A stretch of DNA of 39,408 nt from positions 1 through 39,408 of the IMG/VR virus record IMGVR_UViG_2917849834_000006. One strand, given 5' to 3'. The DNA comes from a virus. Its lineage: Duplodnaviria; Heunggongvirae; Uroviricota; Caudoviricetes. Below, piece after piece: positions 34,468 through 39,408 of this stretch (within the stretch, counting starts at the first letter, position 1; every line of letters begins with the position of its first letter). The position numbers and the translations under genes are program-made. The notes under the pieces are model-generated. The model had not been told where the DNA came from, did not search any database, and saw only the letters and a list, made by a program, of their open reading frames with translations.

Positions 34468-36531
34468 GTGAATATGGCAGTACAGATTTCAGGTGTGCTG
34501 AAAGACGGTGCAGGAAAACCGATACAGAACTGCACCATTCAGCTCAAAGCAAAACGTAACAGCACCACAGTTGTGGTGAACACGGTGGCCTCAGAAAATC
34601 CGGATGAAGCCGGACGTTACAGCATGGATGTTGAGTATGGCCAGTACAGCGTCGCCCTGCTGGTTGAAGGTTTTCCGCCTTCACATGCCGGGACCATCAC
34701 CGTGTATGAGGATTCTAAGCCGGGGACATTGAATGATTTTCTGGGCGCTGCAACAGAAGATGATGTTCGTCCGGAGGCACTGTATCGTTTTGAAAAGATG
34801 GTGGAAGAGGCGGCACGCAACGCTGAAGCCGCCTCTCAGAGCGCAGCGGCAGCAAAGAAATCAGAAACAGCAGCGGCATCGTCCAGGAACGCGGCGAAAA
34901 CATCAGAGACGAATGCAGGTAACAGCGCGAAAGCGGCAGCTTCTTCAAAAACAGCCGCACAAAATGCAGCAACAGCGGCAGAACGTTCAGAGACAAATGC
35001 CCGTGCGTCAGAGGAAGCCTCCGCAGACAGTGAAGAGGCTTCCCGCCGTAATGCAGAGTCAGCCGCTGAGAATGCCGGAATCGCCACCACAAAAGCGCGG
35101 GAGGCCGCAGCAGACGCAACAAAGGCCGGGCAGAAAAAGGATGAGGCTCTGTCGGCAGCGACACGAGCTGAAAAGGCGGCAGACCGCGCAGAAGCCGCAG
35201 CGGAAGTGACTGCAGAGCCCTATGCGAATATAGTGCCGCCGCTGCCTGATGTGTGGATACCGTTTAACGATTCACTGGATATGATTACGGGGTTTTCGCC
35301 ATCATATAAAAAGATTGTTATTGGTGACGATGAAATAACAGTGCCAGGCGACAAGATTGTTAAGTTTAAACGAGCTTCAACAGCAACATATATCAATAAG
35401 TCAGGCTCGTTTGTTGTGGCAGATGTTGATGAAGCCAGATTTGAAAAGTCTGGTTTACTGATAGAAGGGCAACGTACTAATAATTTCATTAACAGTAATG
35501 CACCAGAAGCATGGAACTTTAATAATAAACGTCTTGATGTAAACAGTAATCTCGATCCATTTGGATTCAGCTATGGTGTTCTGACGTATAAAGATTCATC
35601 TGATACCGGGCCTGTGACGCTCATTTCAACAGGAACAGGTCGGGTTATCTCTGTGGAAAATGGTGACTCTGTTACAATTTCTGCCCGATTCAAGGGAAAC
35701 GGAATCAGGGCGAGAATGCGCATATCGAAGCTGAATGATGATGGCGCAGGGAATACTTTTATAGCAGATGCGCTTCTGGATTTGAGCAATCTGACATTAA
35801 AAAGTGATGTGCTTTCGTCATCTTTCGTAGTGGAAAACAGCGGATGGATATTCTTTCAGTCAACCTATAAATCTGATTCATCACAAAATATATATGCCCG
35901 AATAGAAATGTATCAACAGGAAGGCAATGAAATTAAGGTCGGTGACAGTATATCAATGGCAACGCCTCAGGTTGAGAAAGGAACTGCTGCATCATCATTC
36001 ATCATAACAGGGGGAACACCGGCAACGCGAGCCAGTGATATTGTGACAATCCCATTAAATAAAAACTGGGTGCGAAGGCCACTGACAGTACTGACAGAGT
36101 GCAGTGTCTCATGGGACGTTATGCCAAATACCACGGGCGCAGCAAGGATATTAAATATTTCCACTACGGGAGACTCAACAGATATAGCTGACCAGAGTTA
36201 TATGTATCTTGGTTTTATCTCAAAGGGCTCAAAAGCAATCATCACGAATGGAAAGGGAACTATGGCAGAGATAAAAAGTGACATTGCTGTTTCAGGGCGA
36301 AAAAACATTATTGGCGGAAGGTTTAAAGAAGACGGGAGTCTGTCTGTAGTGGTAAATGGAAATATCGGTGGTGCATCGGTTTCGCCTTATAATGATACAA
36401 GATATCTTAATGGTTTCATGAATATAGGGGGGCAATCCTCCACCGGAGACAGGCATTTATTTGGACATGTCAGAAATCTGCGAATCTGGCACAGGGAATT
36501 GAATGACAGGCAATTAAAAGAGGCCGTATGA
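34468..36531 (+). CDS. stf: Side tail fibre protein, chimeric (lambda Stf-like N-terminus, divergent low-GC C-terminal domain)
   Basis: N-terminus MAVQISGVLKDGAGKPIQNCTIQLKAKRNSTTVVVNTV… resembles lambda Stf; Ala-rich coiled-coil middle; C-terminal ~400 aa unrelated and lower GC. Confidence 0.85.
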   Translation: MNMAVQISGVLKDGAGKPIQNCTIQLKAKRNSTTVVVNTVASENPDEAGRYSMDVEYGQYSVALLVEGFPPSHAGTITVYEDSKPGTLNDFLGAATEDDVRPEALYRFEKMVEEAARNAEAASQSAAAAKKSETAAASSRNAAKTSETNAGNSAKAAASSKTAAQNAATAAERSETNARASEEASADSEEASRRNAESAAENAGIATTKAREAAADATKAGQKKDEALSAATRAEKAADRAEAAAEVTAEPYANIVPPLPDVWIPFNDSLDMITGFSPSYKKIVIGDDEITVPGDKIVKFKRASTATYINKSGSFVVADVDEARFEKSGLLIEGQRTNNFINSNAPEAWNFNNKRLDVNSNLDPFGFSYGVLTYKDSSDTGPVTLISTGTGRVISVENGDSVTISARFKGNGIRARMRISKLNDDGAGNTFIADALLDLSNLTLKSDVLSSSFVVENSGWIFFQSTYKSDSSQNIYARIEMYQQEGNEIKVGDSISMATPQVEKGTAASSFIITGGTPATRASDIVTIPLNKNWVRRPLTVLTECSVSWDVMPNTTGAARILNISTTGDSTDIADQSYMYLGFISKGSKAIITNGKGTMAEIKSDIAVSGRKNIIGGRFKEDGSLSVVVNGNIGGASVSPYNDTRYLNGFMNIGGQSSTGDRHLFGHVRNLRIWHRELNDRQLKEAV

Positions 36532-36806
36532 AAGATTTAACTTTGAAGTTTCATGACAAACTGCAGTTTAAGGCCTTCCTGTCATCTCTTGGCTGGGCGG
36601 AAGATGAAGACCTCCAGAATAAACTGTTAGTTGATGAAATTGGTGTCACCTACACAGAAACAGGGGTAACTGAAGAGGGAGAACCTGTCTGTATCCGGAA
36701 TGACGGTTATTTTGTCAACATTCGTATTCTTGATGACTTGTTTGATGTTTCTGTATTCTCTGATTATGTCGTGGAGCTGGAAACACCGCTTCGGGAATGG
36801 AGCTGA
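36528..36806 (+). CDS. Hypothetical protein, possibly a tail fibre assembly chaperone
   Basis: 92 aa, acidic, ATGA overlap with the tail fibre gene; function inferred from position only. Confidence 0.4.
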   Translation: MKDLTLKFHDKLQFKAFLSSLGWAEDEDLQNKLLVDEIGVTYTETGVTEEGEPVCIRNDGYFVNIRILDDLFDVSVFSDYVVELETPLREWS

Positions 36807-36818
36807 AAGGAGGAAATA

Positions 36819-37104
36819 ATGGATATAAGCCCCTTACTTCATGCACTTTGTGCTGTAGCTGCGCAGATACTGGTTGGTCTTTTTACCGGAAACTGGGTTT
36901 ACGGTGCGATAGCCGGTTGTACGTTCTTCATTGCGCGTGAACACACCTAGGCAGAATATCGCTGGATTGAAATGTTCGGGCATGGCAAGCGTATGAATAT
37001 GCCGTGGTGGGGCGGTTTTGATCCACGTGCTTGGGATGTGGCAAGCCTGATGGATTTTGCGGTGCCGGTGGTAGCGTGTCTGCTGGTCTGGCTGTTTATC
37101 CGTT
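36819..37104 (+). pseudogene. Small membrane-protein ORF interrupted by an in-frame TAG (amber) after codon 43
   Basis: Strong RBS AAGGAGG before the ATG at 36819; MDISPLLHALCAVAAQILVGLFTGNWVYGAIAGCTFFIAREHT-TAG-AEYRWIEMFGHGKRMNMPWWGGFDPRAWDVASLMDFAVPVVACLLVWLFIR; frame stays protein-like after the stop. Confidence 0.45.
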
Positions 37105-37112
37105 AAACATAA

Positions 37113-37148
37113 AAAGCCGCAGCAACTTGTCATGGCAGGATACTGCGG
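37113..37148 (-). terminator. Hairpin between convergent genes, candidate terminator of the RT operon
   Basis: AGCCGCAG … CTGCGGCT 8-bp stem with 20-nt loop; T-rich tract follows on the minus strand. Confidence 0.45.
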
Positions 37149-37213
37149 CTGGTTTGTGAGTTTAAATAGTGTGTTTATTACGGTATATTTAAAGGACTTA
37201 ATGGATTACATAT

Positions 37214-38590
37214 CTATGATATTCCTGAAATATCCTCTTCAAGTTCTTTTACTGATTTCGCAATTTTAAATTTAAATTTCCTCTCTATTTCACTATTGCT
37301 AAGTTTTTTTTCCTTCTCTTTCCCTATCCACATAGAAACAAGTTCTCGTTTCTGAGATATATGTAGATTGTCAAAGTTAGGTATGTATTTAAAAGTCTCC
37401 GCTCTACCTCTGCGGAGTTCATAGAAAGTTTTAATCAAAGACTTTGGTTTTATTTCTGATAAAAGGCCGAATCGGCGGATAAGATTATTGATAGTATGAT
37501 TAACAGAGCGAAGTTGAGCTGTTGAGGTTATTTGTGAGAAGTACGATACCCATCCCAATCGTTTACCTTCAAACACACATCCCGTAATTCTGAGATTTAG
37601 TTTCCACTGACAATATGCAACAGCTCGTTCTTTATCGCGCTTACTTTTAGCTTGTAGTAGAGCGTGCCTATATGCAGTAAAAATTTTTGCTAAGGATGAC
37701 TCAAATCTAAGAATGCTCTCATGTTTTATCAATAATTCTCGATTTTCTATGTGGTATCCCAAAAAGTTAAAACTTTCATCCAAGCTGCCTACTTTGGATT
37801 TTGAGTTCTCTTCATTTAATGGATGTGGGTTTAAATTTAATGATTGAAGCTTATCAATGATATGAGATGTTATTTTTGTTGCTTGATATTTGGGCGTTAA
37901 AATAAGAATGTCATCAACGTATCGCATGTACCATATGCCATGCATTTTATTGATTTCATCATCGAAATTAGATAGTGATATTTCAGCTAAAATGTTTGAT
38001 ATCGCTAATCCCTGAGGTACTCCTCTGGTATTATTAGGGATACCTTTGCTTCCTGTACTTCCACTTACAGTAGGTACGATTAATGATGATGTTATTAACT
38101 GTCTAATTTCTTTTTTTCTAATCTTATTTTTTATTGCATTAAATATCAATTTATGTTCAATTGAAGGATAGAAACTTTTAAGATCTATTTTTGCATATTC
38201 AGCATATAGACTGCAGTTTAATGCTTCTTTCAATGAGTCAATTACTGTATGTGGTAGTTTTAATCTGGAATTAGGATATATTTCCGTAAGGCATTCACAG
38301 AGAGCCCTAAGAGTAATTCTGTCCCTAGCAGTTGGTATGGAAATCTGTCTGGGGGTAGAGTTAGCCCCTTTAGATATTAATTTTTCTTTATATGCTGTAA
38401 ATTTATAATTGCCAGAATTAACCTTTTCAAAAATGAAAGTGATCTCATTGTTTATTGTTAAATCAAGTTTTGATGGGCGAATCCGATCTATGCCAATCGC
38501 TCCTGATTCTTTGATTTTTTCAGTGTATACTTTTAGAAGGTTTTTTTTCGAGAATGACTTTTTAAAAATTCTACTTGCAGTCATAGTCAA
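37214..38590 (-). CDS. Reverse transcriptase (prokaryotic defence-type; retron/Abi/DRT-like, family unassigned)
   Basis: RT motifs read in translation: PRQISIPTARDRITLRAL, IDLKSFYPSI, GVPQGLAISNILAEI, WYMRYVDDILIL (YVDD catalytic box), FLGYHI; C-terminal extension of about 150 aa; about 30% GC; track start is TTG, an ATG lies at 38584. Confidence 0.9.
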   Translation of the reverse strand: MTMTASRIFKKSFSKKNLLKVYTEKIKESGAIGIDRIRPSKLDLTINNEITFIFEKVNSGNYKFTAYKEKLISKGANSTPRQISIPTARDRITLRALCECLTEIYPNSRLKLPHTVIDSLKEALNCSLYAEYAKIDLKSFYPSIEHKLIFNAIKNKIRKKEIRQLITSSLIVPTVSGSTGSKGIPNNTRGVPQGLAISNILAEISLSNFDDEINKMHGIWYMRYVDDILILTPKYQATKITSHIIDKLQSLNLNPHPLNEENSKSKVGSLDESFNFLGYHIENRELLIKHESILRFESSLAKIFTAYRHALLQAKSKRDKERAVAYCQWKLNLRITGCVFEGKRLGWVSYFSQITSTAQLRSVNHTINNLIRRFGLLSEIKPKSLIKTFYELRRGRAETFKYIPNFDNLHISQKRELVSMWIGKEKEKKLSNSEIERKFKFKIAKSVKELEEDISGIS

Positions 38591-39113
38591 TCCAAAGATA
38601 TATTAATGGTAGTATATAAAGTGCGGCAGTAATAAATATTCGAAGTAATATCCATAAATTAACAATTATTTTTTCTTTTTGTGTGGGGAGCCTCGTCGTA
38701 AGTCCAACTTGAGTTACCCTTGAAACTTTATCATCTATCTCACGATGATTCTCAACCTCATTGAGCAAATTAAAATATTTTTCTTTCTGTTCAGGAGTTA
38801 ATTGTTGGCCGTTGGTAATGTCAAAATAGAGTCGCTGTAGTGCAATATAATTCCTTCTCATGGCTATTGCTCGACCACGAAAATCTAGGTTAGATACGAT
38901 CAGAGAAATACCTAGTAGAGCCACTGAAAGTATCGCTGCAACGATATCTGTATTATCTCCTAGAACTTTTGGAAATCGTAACGTTACAATTGAAAGCACC
39001 GCACTCAATATAGCATACCAAACGAGGATTAATTGAGAGTGTTTTTCAAGCCATTCTAGTCGATGGTGCGCTTGGATACGGGCTTTATATGTAAACCAAA
39101 TATTGTCATGCAT
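38571..39113 (-). CDS. Small multi-pass membrane protein co-transcribed upstream of the RT (candidate effector)
   Basis: 180 aa; three hydrophobic helices (about residues 27-45, 57-77, 152-176) around a charged middle region; AGGA RBS; ends 8 nt before the RT ATG; same low GC. Confidence 0.7.
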   Translation of the reverse strand: MHDNIWFTYKARIQAHHRLEWLEKHSQLILVWYAILSAVLSIVTLRFPKVLGDNTDIVAAILSVALLGISLIVSNLDFRGRAIAMRRNYIALQRLYFDITNGQQLTPEQKEKYFNLLNEVENHREIDDKVSRVTQVGLTTRLPTQKEKIIVNLWILLRIFITAALYILPLIYLWIDYDCK

Positions 39114-39134
39114 AAAAGATCCTTTTTTAAAAGC

Positions 39135-39275
39135 GGAAGGGGCAGGATATATTGGAACCGTTGAACATCCTGCCCGGCAGGATCAGTGAGCATAAGCTCA
39201 ACAGTAAAATATTACTGTTCATTATCAGAGCCGCCCTTGCATGCGCAAGAGGAAAAACCTGCCCCATCCTTTTGA
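39135..39275 (-). ncRNA. Candidate structured non-coding RNA upstream of the membrane-protein/RT operon (possible msr-msd-like element)
   Basis: Nested inverted repeats: GGGCAGGAT (39140-39148) with ATCCTGCCC (39167-39175); GGAAGGGGCAGG (39135-39146) with CCTGCCCCATCC (39258-39269); small hairpins CTTGC-gcat-GCAAG and CAGTAA-tatt-TTACTG; no ORF. Confidence 0.25.
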
Positions 39276-39408
39276 ATTATTACAATTTAATGATCTTAAA
39301 GTCAATACAAGTGAATGGTGTCCAGGGATGATGAACTTAATGAACAAACCACTCGTCAGCAGACTCCCAAGTATCTTTCAGAGTTTCCTGAACAACAGTT
39401 TTAGCTGA

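Follow-up and report, generated by a model that had tools for sequence, protein, structure and literature searches.

In published DRT10 systems (Tang et al. 2025, PMC12632851; Sanchez-Nieto et al. [quoted passage not shown] Table S1 of the DRT10 paper includes, among its entries, E. coli reverse transcriptases (RTs) closely related to the one studied here, beginning MTASRIFKK and ending ELEEDISGIS.

The window (the whole 39,408-nt stretch of viral DNA analyzed here) contains a low-GC cassette that, judging by its sequence, is a DRT10 (UG17) anti-phage module, arranged on the minus strand as promoter, 137-nt ncRNA, SLATT_5 and RT. An original prediction had described a 9-bp direct repeat flanking this cassette, interpreted either as a footprint of insertion (target duplication or recombination site) or as part of an RNA structure. 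The best overall explanation, which we hold with considerable confidence, is that the cassette is DRT10 cargo, the right-hand copies of the repeat are helices of the ncRNA, and the left-hand copy is a coincidence in the loop of a backbone hairpin. This explanation builds on direct observation of family assignments, the structure and covariation of the ncRNA, the limits of the cassette, and how the hairpin alleles are distributed. The module comprises the following features:

37214..38584, minus strand: UG17 (DRT10) reverse transcriptase gene, 456 aa, ATG at 38584, YVDD motif, C-terminal Ser456
38571..39113, minus strand: SLATT_5 two-transmembrane effector gene, 3' end overlapping the RT start by 14 nt
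39133..39269, minus strand: predicted DRT10 ncRNA, 137 nt, with basal stem, four small stem-loops and an 18-nt template loop
39276..39305, minus strand: candidate sigma-70 promoter, TTGACT, 18-nt spacer, TG-extended AATAAT, with the putative start ~7 nt downstream at G39269

The RT matches the PADLOC RT_UG17 profile over its full length (1-429/429 of the profile, E=1.9e-158; runner-up Drt3a, 1e-36) as well as Pfam RVT_1 (E=7.4e-21), contains the motif ...MRYVDDILIL..., and ends in ...ELEEDISGIS; an identical 456-aa product has been annotated by RefSeq. Its C-terminal Ser, conserved in 14/14 RT homologs, is a candidate priming residue. The adjacent gene matches PADLOC RTasSLATT (E=1e-56) and Pfam SLATT_5 (E=4.9e-28), and its stop codon (38571-38573) lies inside the RT gene, giving the SLATT-RT order of DRT10. 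As far as sequence features can tell, the locus therefore combines a UG17 RT, an adjacent SLATT_5 gene, a structured ncRNA (~137-143 nt in DRT10 systems), an A-B-A' loop, and YxDD with a C-terminal Ser, the features by which DRT10 membership is recognized. The ncRNA-SLATT-RT order, the overlap between the two genes, the 456-aa RT with YVDD and Ser456, and the 137-nt ncRNA with basal stem and four small stem-loops are all shared with the Eco3DRT10-like clade of DRT10/UG17, by analogy with which the allele in the window would be expected to act in defense.

A scan of positions 36500-39408 against Rfam yielded no family match at E<=1, and the ncRNA was recognized via the literature and its homologs. 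Its predicted fold (MFE -56.9 kcal/mol, z -4.39) pairs nt 1-12 with nt 124-135 in the basal stem and leaves nt 104-121 as the template loop. The consensus fold of 15 loci contains 34 pairs, 14 of them with compensatory changes, and 99.6% of cells are paired in this consensus (vs ~50% in slid controls), a value reached by 0/500 shuffles. Among E. coli alleles the ncRNA is identical at 137/137 positions while flanks and genes differ by 2-7%, and the invariant stretch corresponds exactly to 39133-39269. The candidate promoter outscores all other promoter-like sequences of the region (10/12 plus TG, a consensus match only); transcription would start at G39269, and the same promoter possibly also serves the operon.

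Within the window, the nine bases GGCAGGATA are present as two exact copies only, at 37134-37142 and 39141-39149. The direct repeat thus exists as described and its right copy had been placed correctly, while the left copy had been positioned two bases off, at 37132-37140. The 8-mer GGCAGGAT, reported as a third copy at 39177-39184, is likewise real, with its true position at 39176-39183. An inverted copy of GGCAGGAT, at 39167-39174, had been overlooked. These copies fall within three structural elements:

37116..37149, both strands fold: backbone hairpin at the end of the tail-fiber operon, stem GCCGCAG/CTGCGGC, 20-nt loop containing GGCAGGATA
39135..39149, minus strand: basal-stem 3' arm (RNA CCUGCCCCUUCC, 39146-39135) and the final 3 nt of the template loop, plus strand GGAAGGGGCAGGATA
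39167..39183, minus strand: SL5, the stem-loop directly 5' of the template loop

The suggestion that the repeat is part of an RNA structure is borne out by fold and covariation for the copy at 39141-39149 (nt 121-129 of the ncRNA), which belongs to the 3' arm of the basal stem, and for that at 39176-39183, which is the 5' arm of SL5. It fails for the copy at 37134-37142, which sits in the backbone hairpin loop instead and is unrelated to the ncRNA helices. In the basal stem (helix 1; both sides vary in 7 of its 10 pairs), GGGGCAGG (nt 5-12) pairs with CCUGCCCC (nt 124-131). In SL5, AUCCUGCC (nt 87-94), the 5' arm, corresponds to the third copy as read on the plus strand, and GGCAGGAU (nt 96-103), the 3' arm, to the inverted copy. 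GGCAGGAT builds two helices, which is why the motif and its complement together have four occurrences in the ncRNA gene. The SL5 core helix GAUCC/GGAUG (helix 5) is conserved in 15/15 loci, while its extension by UGCC/GGCA, which duplicates basal-stem sequence and distinguishes the locus from Eco3DRT10, is restricted to the E. coli and Xenorhabdus clade. We considered whether sequence sharing between SL1 and SL5 might be a general DRT10 feature; other homologs share only AUCC(C/U), and the 8-nt duplication is clade-specific.

The template loop contains one further feature:

39151..39163, minus strand: predicted A-B-A' template, with CAA-CGGUUC at nt 107-115 and, directly after it, the realignment site CAA(U) at nt 116-119

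The run CAA-CGGUUC-CAA (nt 107-118) begins 3 nt past SL5, and the pattern (U)CAA...(U)CAA, with a period of 9-10 nt, is conserved in 15/15 aligned loci. Template (nt 107-115) and A' (nt 116-119) are numbered identically in Eco3DRT10 (PMC12632851), but the template here reads CAACGGUUC followed by CAAU, vs the reported CAAUGAUUC followed by CAAU, and the identity between A and A' spans 3 nt rather than 4. By homology with Eco3DRT10, protein-primed, telomerase-like synthesis would generate tandem 9-nt cDNA repeats from CAACGGUUC, realigning at CAA, with SL5 fixing the 5' template boundary; the predicted repeat, which also differs from that of Eco3DRT10, would be 5'-GAACCGTTG-3'. An 8-nt register, GUUC-AACG-GUUC (nt 104-115; CGTTGAAC repeats), is found only in enterobacterial sequences and is missing from the Pseudomonas homologs, and the conserved CAA...CAA register is therefore preferred.

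Lambdoid phages contain moron or cargo slots between their tail-fiber genes and int, flanked by conserved terminators and linkers. The 2.2-kb segment appears, from its genes and flanks, to be DRT10 cargo in such a variable slot of a lambdoid prophage, extending from the tail-fiber operon terminator to dinI-int, and alternative cargos occupy the same slot in other phages. Its right backbone flank is:

39337..39408, minus strand: 3' end of a dinI-like gene that runs off the window, annotated DinI-like in loci L001, L002, L003, L066 and L067

Homology to empty-site phages on the left covers the whole hairpin and ends at ~37153-37179; on the right, homology to cassette-free genomes restarts at 39337 (query 2338), the final nucleotide of the dinI stop codon. 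Relative to empty sites, the cassette therefore extends from ~37153/37180 to 39336 (2.2 kb, about 30-37% GC). Global alignment of the empty-site spacer to the whole cassette is meaningful for the first three blocks only (37102-37179), and, since differing upstream genes confound such alignment of the left flanks, these were inspected directly. In the empty sites L001 and L002, the hairpin is retained and joined to dinI via a ~70-bp spacer; empty-site phages with the hairpin include mEp460_4F5 and PhiR55_1.

The hairpin folds on both strands (-23.5 and -19.5 kcal/mol; z -3.45 and -3.10), and the left repeat copy does lie within its 20-nt loop, as had been stated, between GCCGCAG (37116-37122) and CTGCGGC (37143-37149). 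On the minus strand it is followed in the window by a U-run (UUUUUAUGUUU), which suggests that it is a terminator of leftward transcription and probably ends the SLATT-RT operon as well. In 21 cassette-free loci the loop reads GATAGGATA or GACAGGATA (the AT or AC allele); the former, usual at cassette-free sites, matches GGCAGGATA at 7/9 positions, a match that the two substitutions of the GC allele raise to 9/9. The GC loop accompanies the cassette in 7 loci plus the window, and apparently in all 188 cassette-bearing E. coli genomes, judged by class representatives only. The exact GGCAGGATA hairpin also exists in E. coli lacking the cassette, in 9 complete genomes (L068 and 8 more), and the same stem with other loops is located downstream of tfa genes.

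If the RT/SLATT cassette had left the repeat behind on insertion, as a target-site duplication or as the core of a site-specific recombination site, this would account for an exact 9-mer near both ends of a low-GC segment and for the GGCAGGATA loop allele in every occupied locus examined. We nevertheless give this reading almost no credence. The copies had been said to bracket the cassette almost exactly; comparison with empty-site phages places the left copy 11-38 bp outside it, and the right copy ~190 bp inside it, within a conserved structured RNA, while the junctions lie at ~37153-37180 and 39336/39337. This positioning rules out a target duplication. Aligning prophages that lack the RT, as had been proposed, yields an empty site consisting of the hairpin (usually with GATAGGATA) and a ~70-bp spacer rather than a single copy of the repeat. 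Empty sites already have the hairpin, the exact GC allele of which also exists without the cassette, and ~45-70 bp of spacer has been replaced by the cassette instead of a clean insertion. No transposase or integrase is encoded among the ORFs of the cassette. Target-site duplications and att core sites resemble this arrangement in having short direct repeats near both ends of foreign DNA; the repeats here differ in lying off the junctions, with one copy in a functional RNA gene, an empty site that is not 'one copy', and a segment without a recombinase.

Nor is the repeat kept with the cassette elsewhere. No flanking repeat above the null was detected in 14 DRT10 loci of other genera (Xenorhabdus, Photorhabdus, Buttiauxella, Pseudomonas, Stutzerimonas), where matches between the RT-downstream sequence and the locus's own ncRNA (5-9 nt) do not exceed non-self matches (6-10 nt). 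One locus, L062, has a 9-mer match in its downstream hairpin, which is within expectation. A 9-mer match of this kind is at chance level: GGCAGGATA is expected 0.22 times per window; the window contains 1,101 direct 9-mer pairs <=3 kb apart, 315 of them spaced 1.5-2.5 kb; shuffling of the junction zones (101 bp and 227 bp) produces a common 9-mer in 9.3% of trials in direct orientation and 16.3% in either; and 26/210 unrelated pairs of ncRNA and RT-downstream sequence have a common match of 9 nt or longer. The left-hand copy at 37134-37142, in the loop of a terminator hairpin belonging to the phage itself, is a match at the level of chance, and the repeat accompanies the module within E. coli only since the same hairpin travels with the cassette.

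The cassette and hairpin together are found behind three distinct left flanks, and would move as a unit when prophages recombine through homologous sequence, with one crossover in dinI and the other within the hairpin or to its left. Such joint exchange, requiring no insertion mechanism, would explain why, in most genomes, the GC allele goes with the cassette; we infer this hitch-hiking history from the sampled loci. The hairpin might alternatively be the cassette's own 3' terminator, co-imported with it, with the hairpins of empty sites representing remnants of cassette loss. In a tfa-type context, homology to the window begins at position 37116, precisely where the hairpin starts, other tfa-type loci have different loops, and in the window the U-run follows the hairpin on the minus strand. 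We consider this improbable: hairpins with the same stem and various loops lie after the late operon of many lambdoid phages, whether these have unrelated cargo or no cargo at all, and are followed there by a conserved ~60-bp spacer that is missing from cassette-bearing loci; moreover, the sequence after the RT is unrelated in DRT10 loci of other genera, and the minus strand lacks a U-run in the tfa-type context.

A functional connection between hairpin and ncRNA can also be envisaged, in which the terminator loop (UAUCCUGCC on the SLATT-RT mRNA, GGCAGGAUA on the phage late transcript) would pair with or mimic ncRNA nt 95-103 / 121-129, such that operon expression or prophage late transcription would modulate ncRNA folding or RT loading. 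The 9/9 match is confined to the cassette-linked hairpin allele and present in each cassette-bearing E. coli locus examined, across three left contexts; the motif sits in an exposed loop; and an alternative ncRNA fold using the same motif lies only 3.3 kcal/mol above the MFE. We regard this interaction as very unlikely, however, as the GC allele also occurs without the cassette, the Xenorhabdus, Photorhabdus, Buttiauxella and Pseudomonas relatives have no self-match beyond the null, and an inner helix on the plus strand pairs part of the loop motif. Covariation between loop and ncRNA is uninformative among E. coli alleles, the ncRNA being invariant. Published in vitro DRT10 activity needed just the RT, chemically synthesized ncRNA and dNTPs, and the terminator loop is therefore not required for cDNA synthesis. 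The substitutions that raised the match from 7/9 to 9/9 could in principle have been selected. That the loop's identity to nt 121-129 (complementary to the 3' arm of SL5) was in fact selected rather than carried along by hitch-hiking, and would gate template access together with the alternative fold of the SL1/SL5 duplication, seems to us less probable again; if true, such gating might, for example, silence DRT10 while the prophage itself is being induced.

An insertion scar would have indicated a mobility mechanism for a defense cassette, which is not the case here. The locus instead offers a clean DRT10 annotation in the cargo slot of a lambdoid prophage, with ncRNA boundaries, the predicted template CAACGGUUC and the predicted repeat GAACCGTTG, and points to homologous exchange, between the conserved terminator hairpin and dinI, as the way in which the module spreads through E. 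coli prophages. The annotation is of practical use and will not surprise a specialist, as the DRT10 system in the window is an ordinary one of a kind already described.

Its placement, too, shows nothing unusual for lambdoid moron or cargo slots, in which a low-GC autonomous transcription unit is likewise bounded by a conserved hairpin and dinI-int; other cargos cross over after the conserved ~60-bp spacer, whereas the left crossover here is in or left of the hairpin. Like the msr-msd of retrons, with its a1/a2 inverted repeats, the module has a structured, RT-associated ncRNA whose ends pair in a basal stem, but DRT10 does not follow the logic of 2'-5' branched msDNA, and its template is a 9-nt loop segment. 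Retron identity was rejected, with no Rfam hit at E<=1 and UG17, rather than a retron RT, as the best RT model. By homology with Eco3DRT10, the A-B-A' template and SL5 would correspond to the template, alignment region and boundary element of telomerase RNA; DRT10 differs in being bacterial, protein-primed and equipped with a membrane effector, and the likeness is one of working, not of membership.

The 9-bp repeat GGCAGGATA occurs as two exact copies in the window, at 37134-37142 (copy 1, two bases from where the original prediction had placed it) and 39141-39149 (copy 2). The 8-mer GGCAGGAT has an additional plus-strand copy at 39176-39183 and a minus-strand copy, missed in the first reading, at 39167-39174, so that the right-hand cluster reads GGGCAGGAT-N18-ATCCTGCC-C-GGCAGGAT. 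Copy 1 lies inside the 20-nt loop of a hairpin with the stem GCCGCAG (37116-37122)/CTGCGGC (37143-37149).

The low-GC stretch (∼30-37% GC vs. ∼45-55% in the tail genes) contains two minus-strand genes:

37214-38584, minus strand: UG17 reverse transcriptase, RT (PADLOC RT_UG17, E=1.9e-158, full length; Pfam RVT_1)
38571-39113, minus strand: SLATT_5 two-transmembrane protein (RTasSLATT, E=1e-56; SLATT_5, E=4.9e-28)

This UG17+SLATT pair is a DRT10 defence system, a tripartite module (ncRNA, SLATT, RT) whose RT copies an A-B-A' template into protein-primed cDNA made of tandem repeats; the template is located in a loop directly 3' of stem-loop SL5 within a ∼137-143-nt ncRNA upstream of SLATT (PMC12632851; bioRxiv 10.64898/2026.04.29.721553). 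The cassette is present in 188 of 5,426 complete E. coli genomes. Several E. coli strains carry IS2 or IS1 within it (e.g. NC_020163.1 APEC O78, NZ_CP082087.1, NZ_CP025851.1), and the SLATT annotation is split in strain 510016, pointing to repeated inactivation of the system.

In the window, a lambdoid prophage, J and the side tail fibre precede two small ORFs, the hairpin, the cassette and dinI, in this order; in relatives, dinI is followed by int and attR, adjoining prfC or dusA. mEp460_4F5 and PhiR55_1, which lack the cassette, have the same small ORF and the same hairpin (loop GATAGGATA), then a ∼70-bp spacer and dinI. Left-hand homology to these empty sites continues across the hairpin until ∼37153-37179 (42/47, then 16/23 identical) and restarts on the right at 39337, the dinI stop. 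The cassette thus extends from ∼37153/37180 to 39336, placing copy 1 outside it and copy 2 ∼190 bp inside, so that the repeats do not bracket it as had been proposed; copy 1 is part of the phage backbone, in the loop of a probable terminator. The suggestion that the repeat is an insertion footprint, either a target duplication or a recombination core, is contradicted by these boundaries, by the empty sites and by 14 foreign loci, and no recombinase lies within the cassette.

The tail-fibre genes are separated from the hairpin by a small membrane-protein ORF (36819-37106, plus strand) that contains an in-frame TAG at 36948-36950 where relatives have CAG; it is intact (95 aa) in mEp460_4F5 and annotated by RefSeq with an ‘internal stop’ in CAVP819 (L066).

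Among IMG/VR and fetched records, the GGCAGGATA loop (the GC allele) occurs in the window and seven further loci, all with the cassette, and the GATAGGATA or GACAGGATA loop in 21 loci, none of which has it (0/21). Cassette and hairpin are found together behind three different left flanks, namely the small membrane ORF, a truncated rrrD and a tfa gene; in the tfa context, homology to the window begins with base 37116 exactly. Tfa genes without DRT10 are followed by the same stem with quite different loops. The hairpin is thus a conserved boundary element of this cargo slot, and the GC allele probably moves together with the cassette during prophage recombination. This association is not obligatory: TCM3e1 (L068) has the exact 41-nt GC-type hairpin followed by an empty-type spacer and unrelated cargo, and a 75-nt query across its hairpin/spacer junction matched nine complete genomes, four at 100% and five at 98.7% (hairpin confirmed exact in two of the five).

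A conserved ∼60-bp spacer ending in ...GATTTTA lies right of the hairpin in cassette-free loci (L005, L006, L009, L016, L068 and others), and at least four unrelated cargos start after it, which makes the stretch from the late-operon terminator to dinI-int a hotspot for cargo. DRT10 differs from the other cargos in replacing most of this spacer. The same cassette-dinI(-int) block is found at two chromosomal sites, beside prfC (L003) and beside dusA (L067), consistent with spread by lambdoid-prophage recombination beyond vertical descent alone.

For 39125-39275, the predicted minus-strand fold (-56.9 kcal/mol, z = -4.39) has a basal stem that surrounds an 18-nt loop and four small stem-loops. 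The best promoter-like site of the region, TTGACT-N18-(TG)AATAAT (39305-39276), predicts a start at ∼G39269, from which the ncRNA features are numbered:

39269-39133, minus strand: predicted ncRNA, 137 nt
39141-39149: copy 2, nt 121-129, final three template-loop bases and first six of the basal-stem 3' arm
39176-39183: copy 3, nt 87-94, 5' arm of SL5
39167-39174: inverted copy, nt 96-103, 3' arm of SL5
nt 5-12: GGGGCAGG, further complementary copy, 5' arm of the basal stem

The two right-hand copies (really three or four) are thus helices of the predicted DRT10 ncRNA; the original alternative of a role in RNA structure holds for these, and fails for copy 1, which sits in a backbone hairpin loop. 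SLATT-upstream regions were aligned with those of 14 loci from Xenorhabdus, Photorhabdus, Buttiauxella, Pseudomonas and Stutzerimonas (RTs 59-83% identical). The consensus structure of the window and these loci has 34 pairs, 14 with compensatory changes; paired cells reach 99.6%, vs. 48-54% with partners slid, and none of 500 shuffles attained the observed covariation. Both sides have changed in seven of the ten basal-stem pairs, and the template loop keeps (U)CAA...(U)CAA, with a period of 9-10 nt, in 15/15 sequences; the predicted cDNA repeat would be GAACCGTTG. Among E. coli alleles, 39133-39269 is identical at 137/137 positions, with the nearest SNPs immediately beyond both predicted ends, despite differences of 2-7% in RT, SLATT and flanks (identities of 97-98%, 96% and, for flanking non-coding DNA, 93-97%), which independently supports the ncRNA boundaries. 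Rfam holds no model for this ncRNA.

A second, overlapping A-B-A' register, GUUC-AACG-GUUC (nt 104-115; 39155-39166, minus strand; period 8 nt), is confined to enterobacterial homologues and might provide a cryptic site for realignment that blurs the repeat period, an effect reported for Eco1DRT10. SL5 and the basal stem also have in common the 8-nt sequence AUCCUGCC/GGCAGGAU (39135-39183 and 39258-39265, minus strand). Because their arms duplicate it, a partner-swapped fold is possible (-53.9 vs. -57.2 kcal/mol, 3.3 above the MFE, ∼2% of the ensemble). The duplication is restricted to the clade of E. coli and Xenorhabdus; in more distant homologues, sharing is limited to AUCC(C/U).

A functional interaction between the hairpin loop and the ncRNA would fit the 9/9 match in every cassette-bearing E. 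coli locus examined, but finds no positive support: the ncRNA is invariant among E. coli alleles, leaving no covariation to look at, relatives have no counterpart, the GC allele also occurs without the cassette, and cDNA synthesis in vitro requires just RT, ncRNA and dNTPs (PMC12632851). The window contains 1,101 direct 9-mer pairs ≤3 kb apart; shuffled junction zones have a common 9-mer in 9.3% of cases (direct) or 16.3% (either strand), as do 26/210 unrelated ncRNA/RT-downstream pairs (9-mer or longer), and self-pairs in the 14 foreign loci match no better than these unrelated pairs. The backbone loop already matched at 7/9 positions before the GC allele arose, and copy 1 is a chance-level match that probably hitch-hikes with the cassette. 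The only parallel, in Pseudomonas sp. RGM 3321 (L062), is a hairpin in the 30 nt that directly follow the RT stop (CAGGCAG-UCCC-CUGCCUG) that has the 9-mer CCCCTGCCT in common with the 3' basal-stem arm of its own ncRNA, no more than expected by chance, as 12% of unrelated pairs do so.

The module belongs to the Eco3-like clade of DRT10, a known and already described defence system, and Table S1 of PMC12632851 includes close E. coli relatives of the window RT. This RT (456 aa counted from ATG) contains YVDD and ends in Ser456, matching S456 of Eco3DRT10, its priming serine at the C-terminus. The predicted ncRNA fold corresponds to the published DRT10 architecture, and CAACGGUUC (nt 107-115) and CAAU (nt 116-119) have numbering identical to that of the Eco3DRT10 template and A' site.
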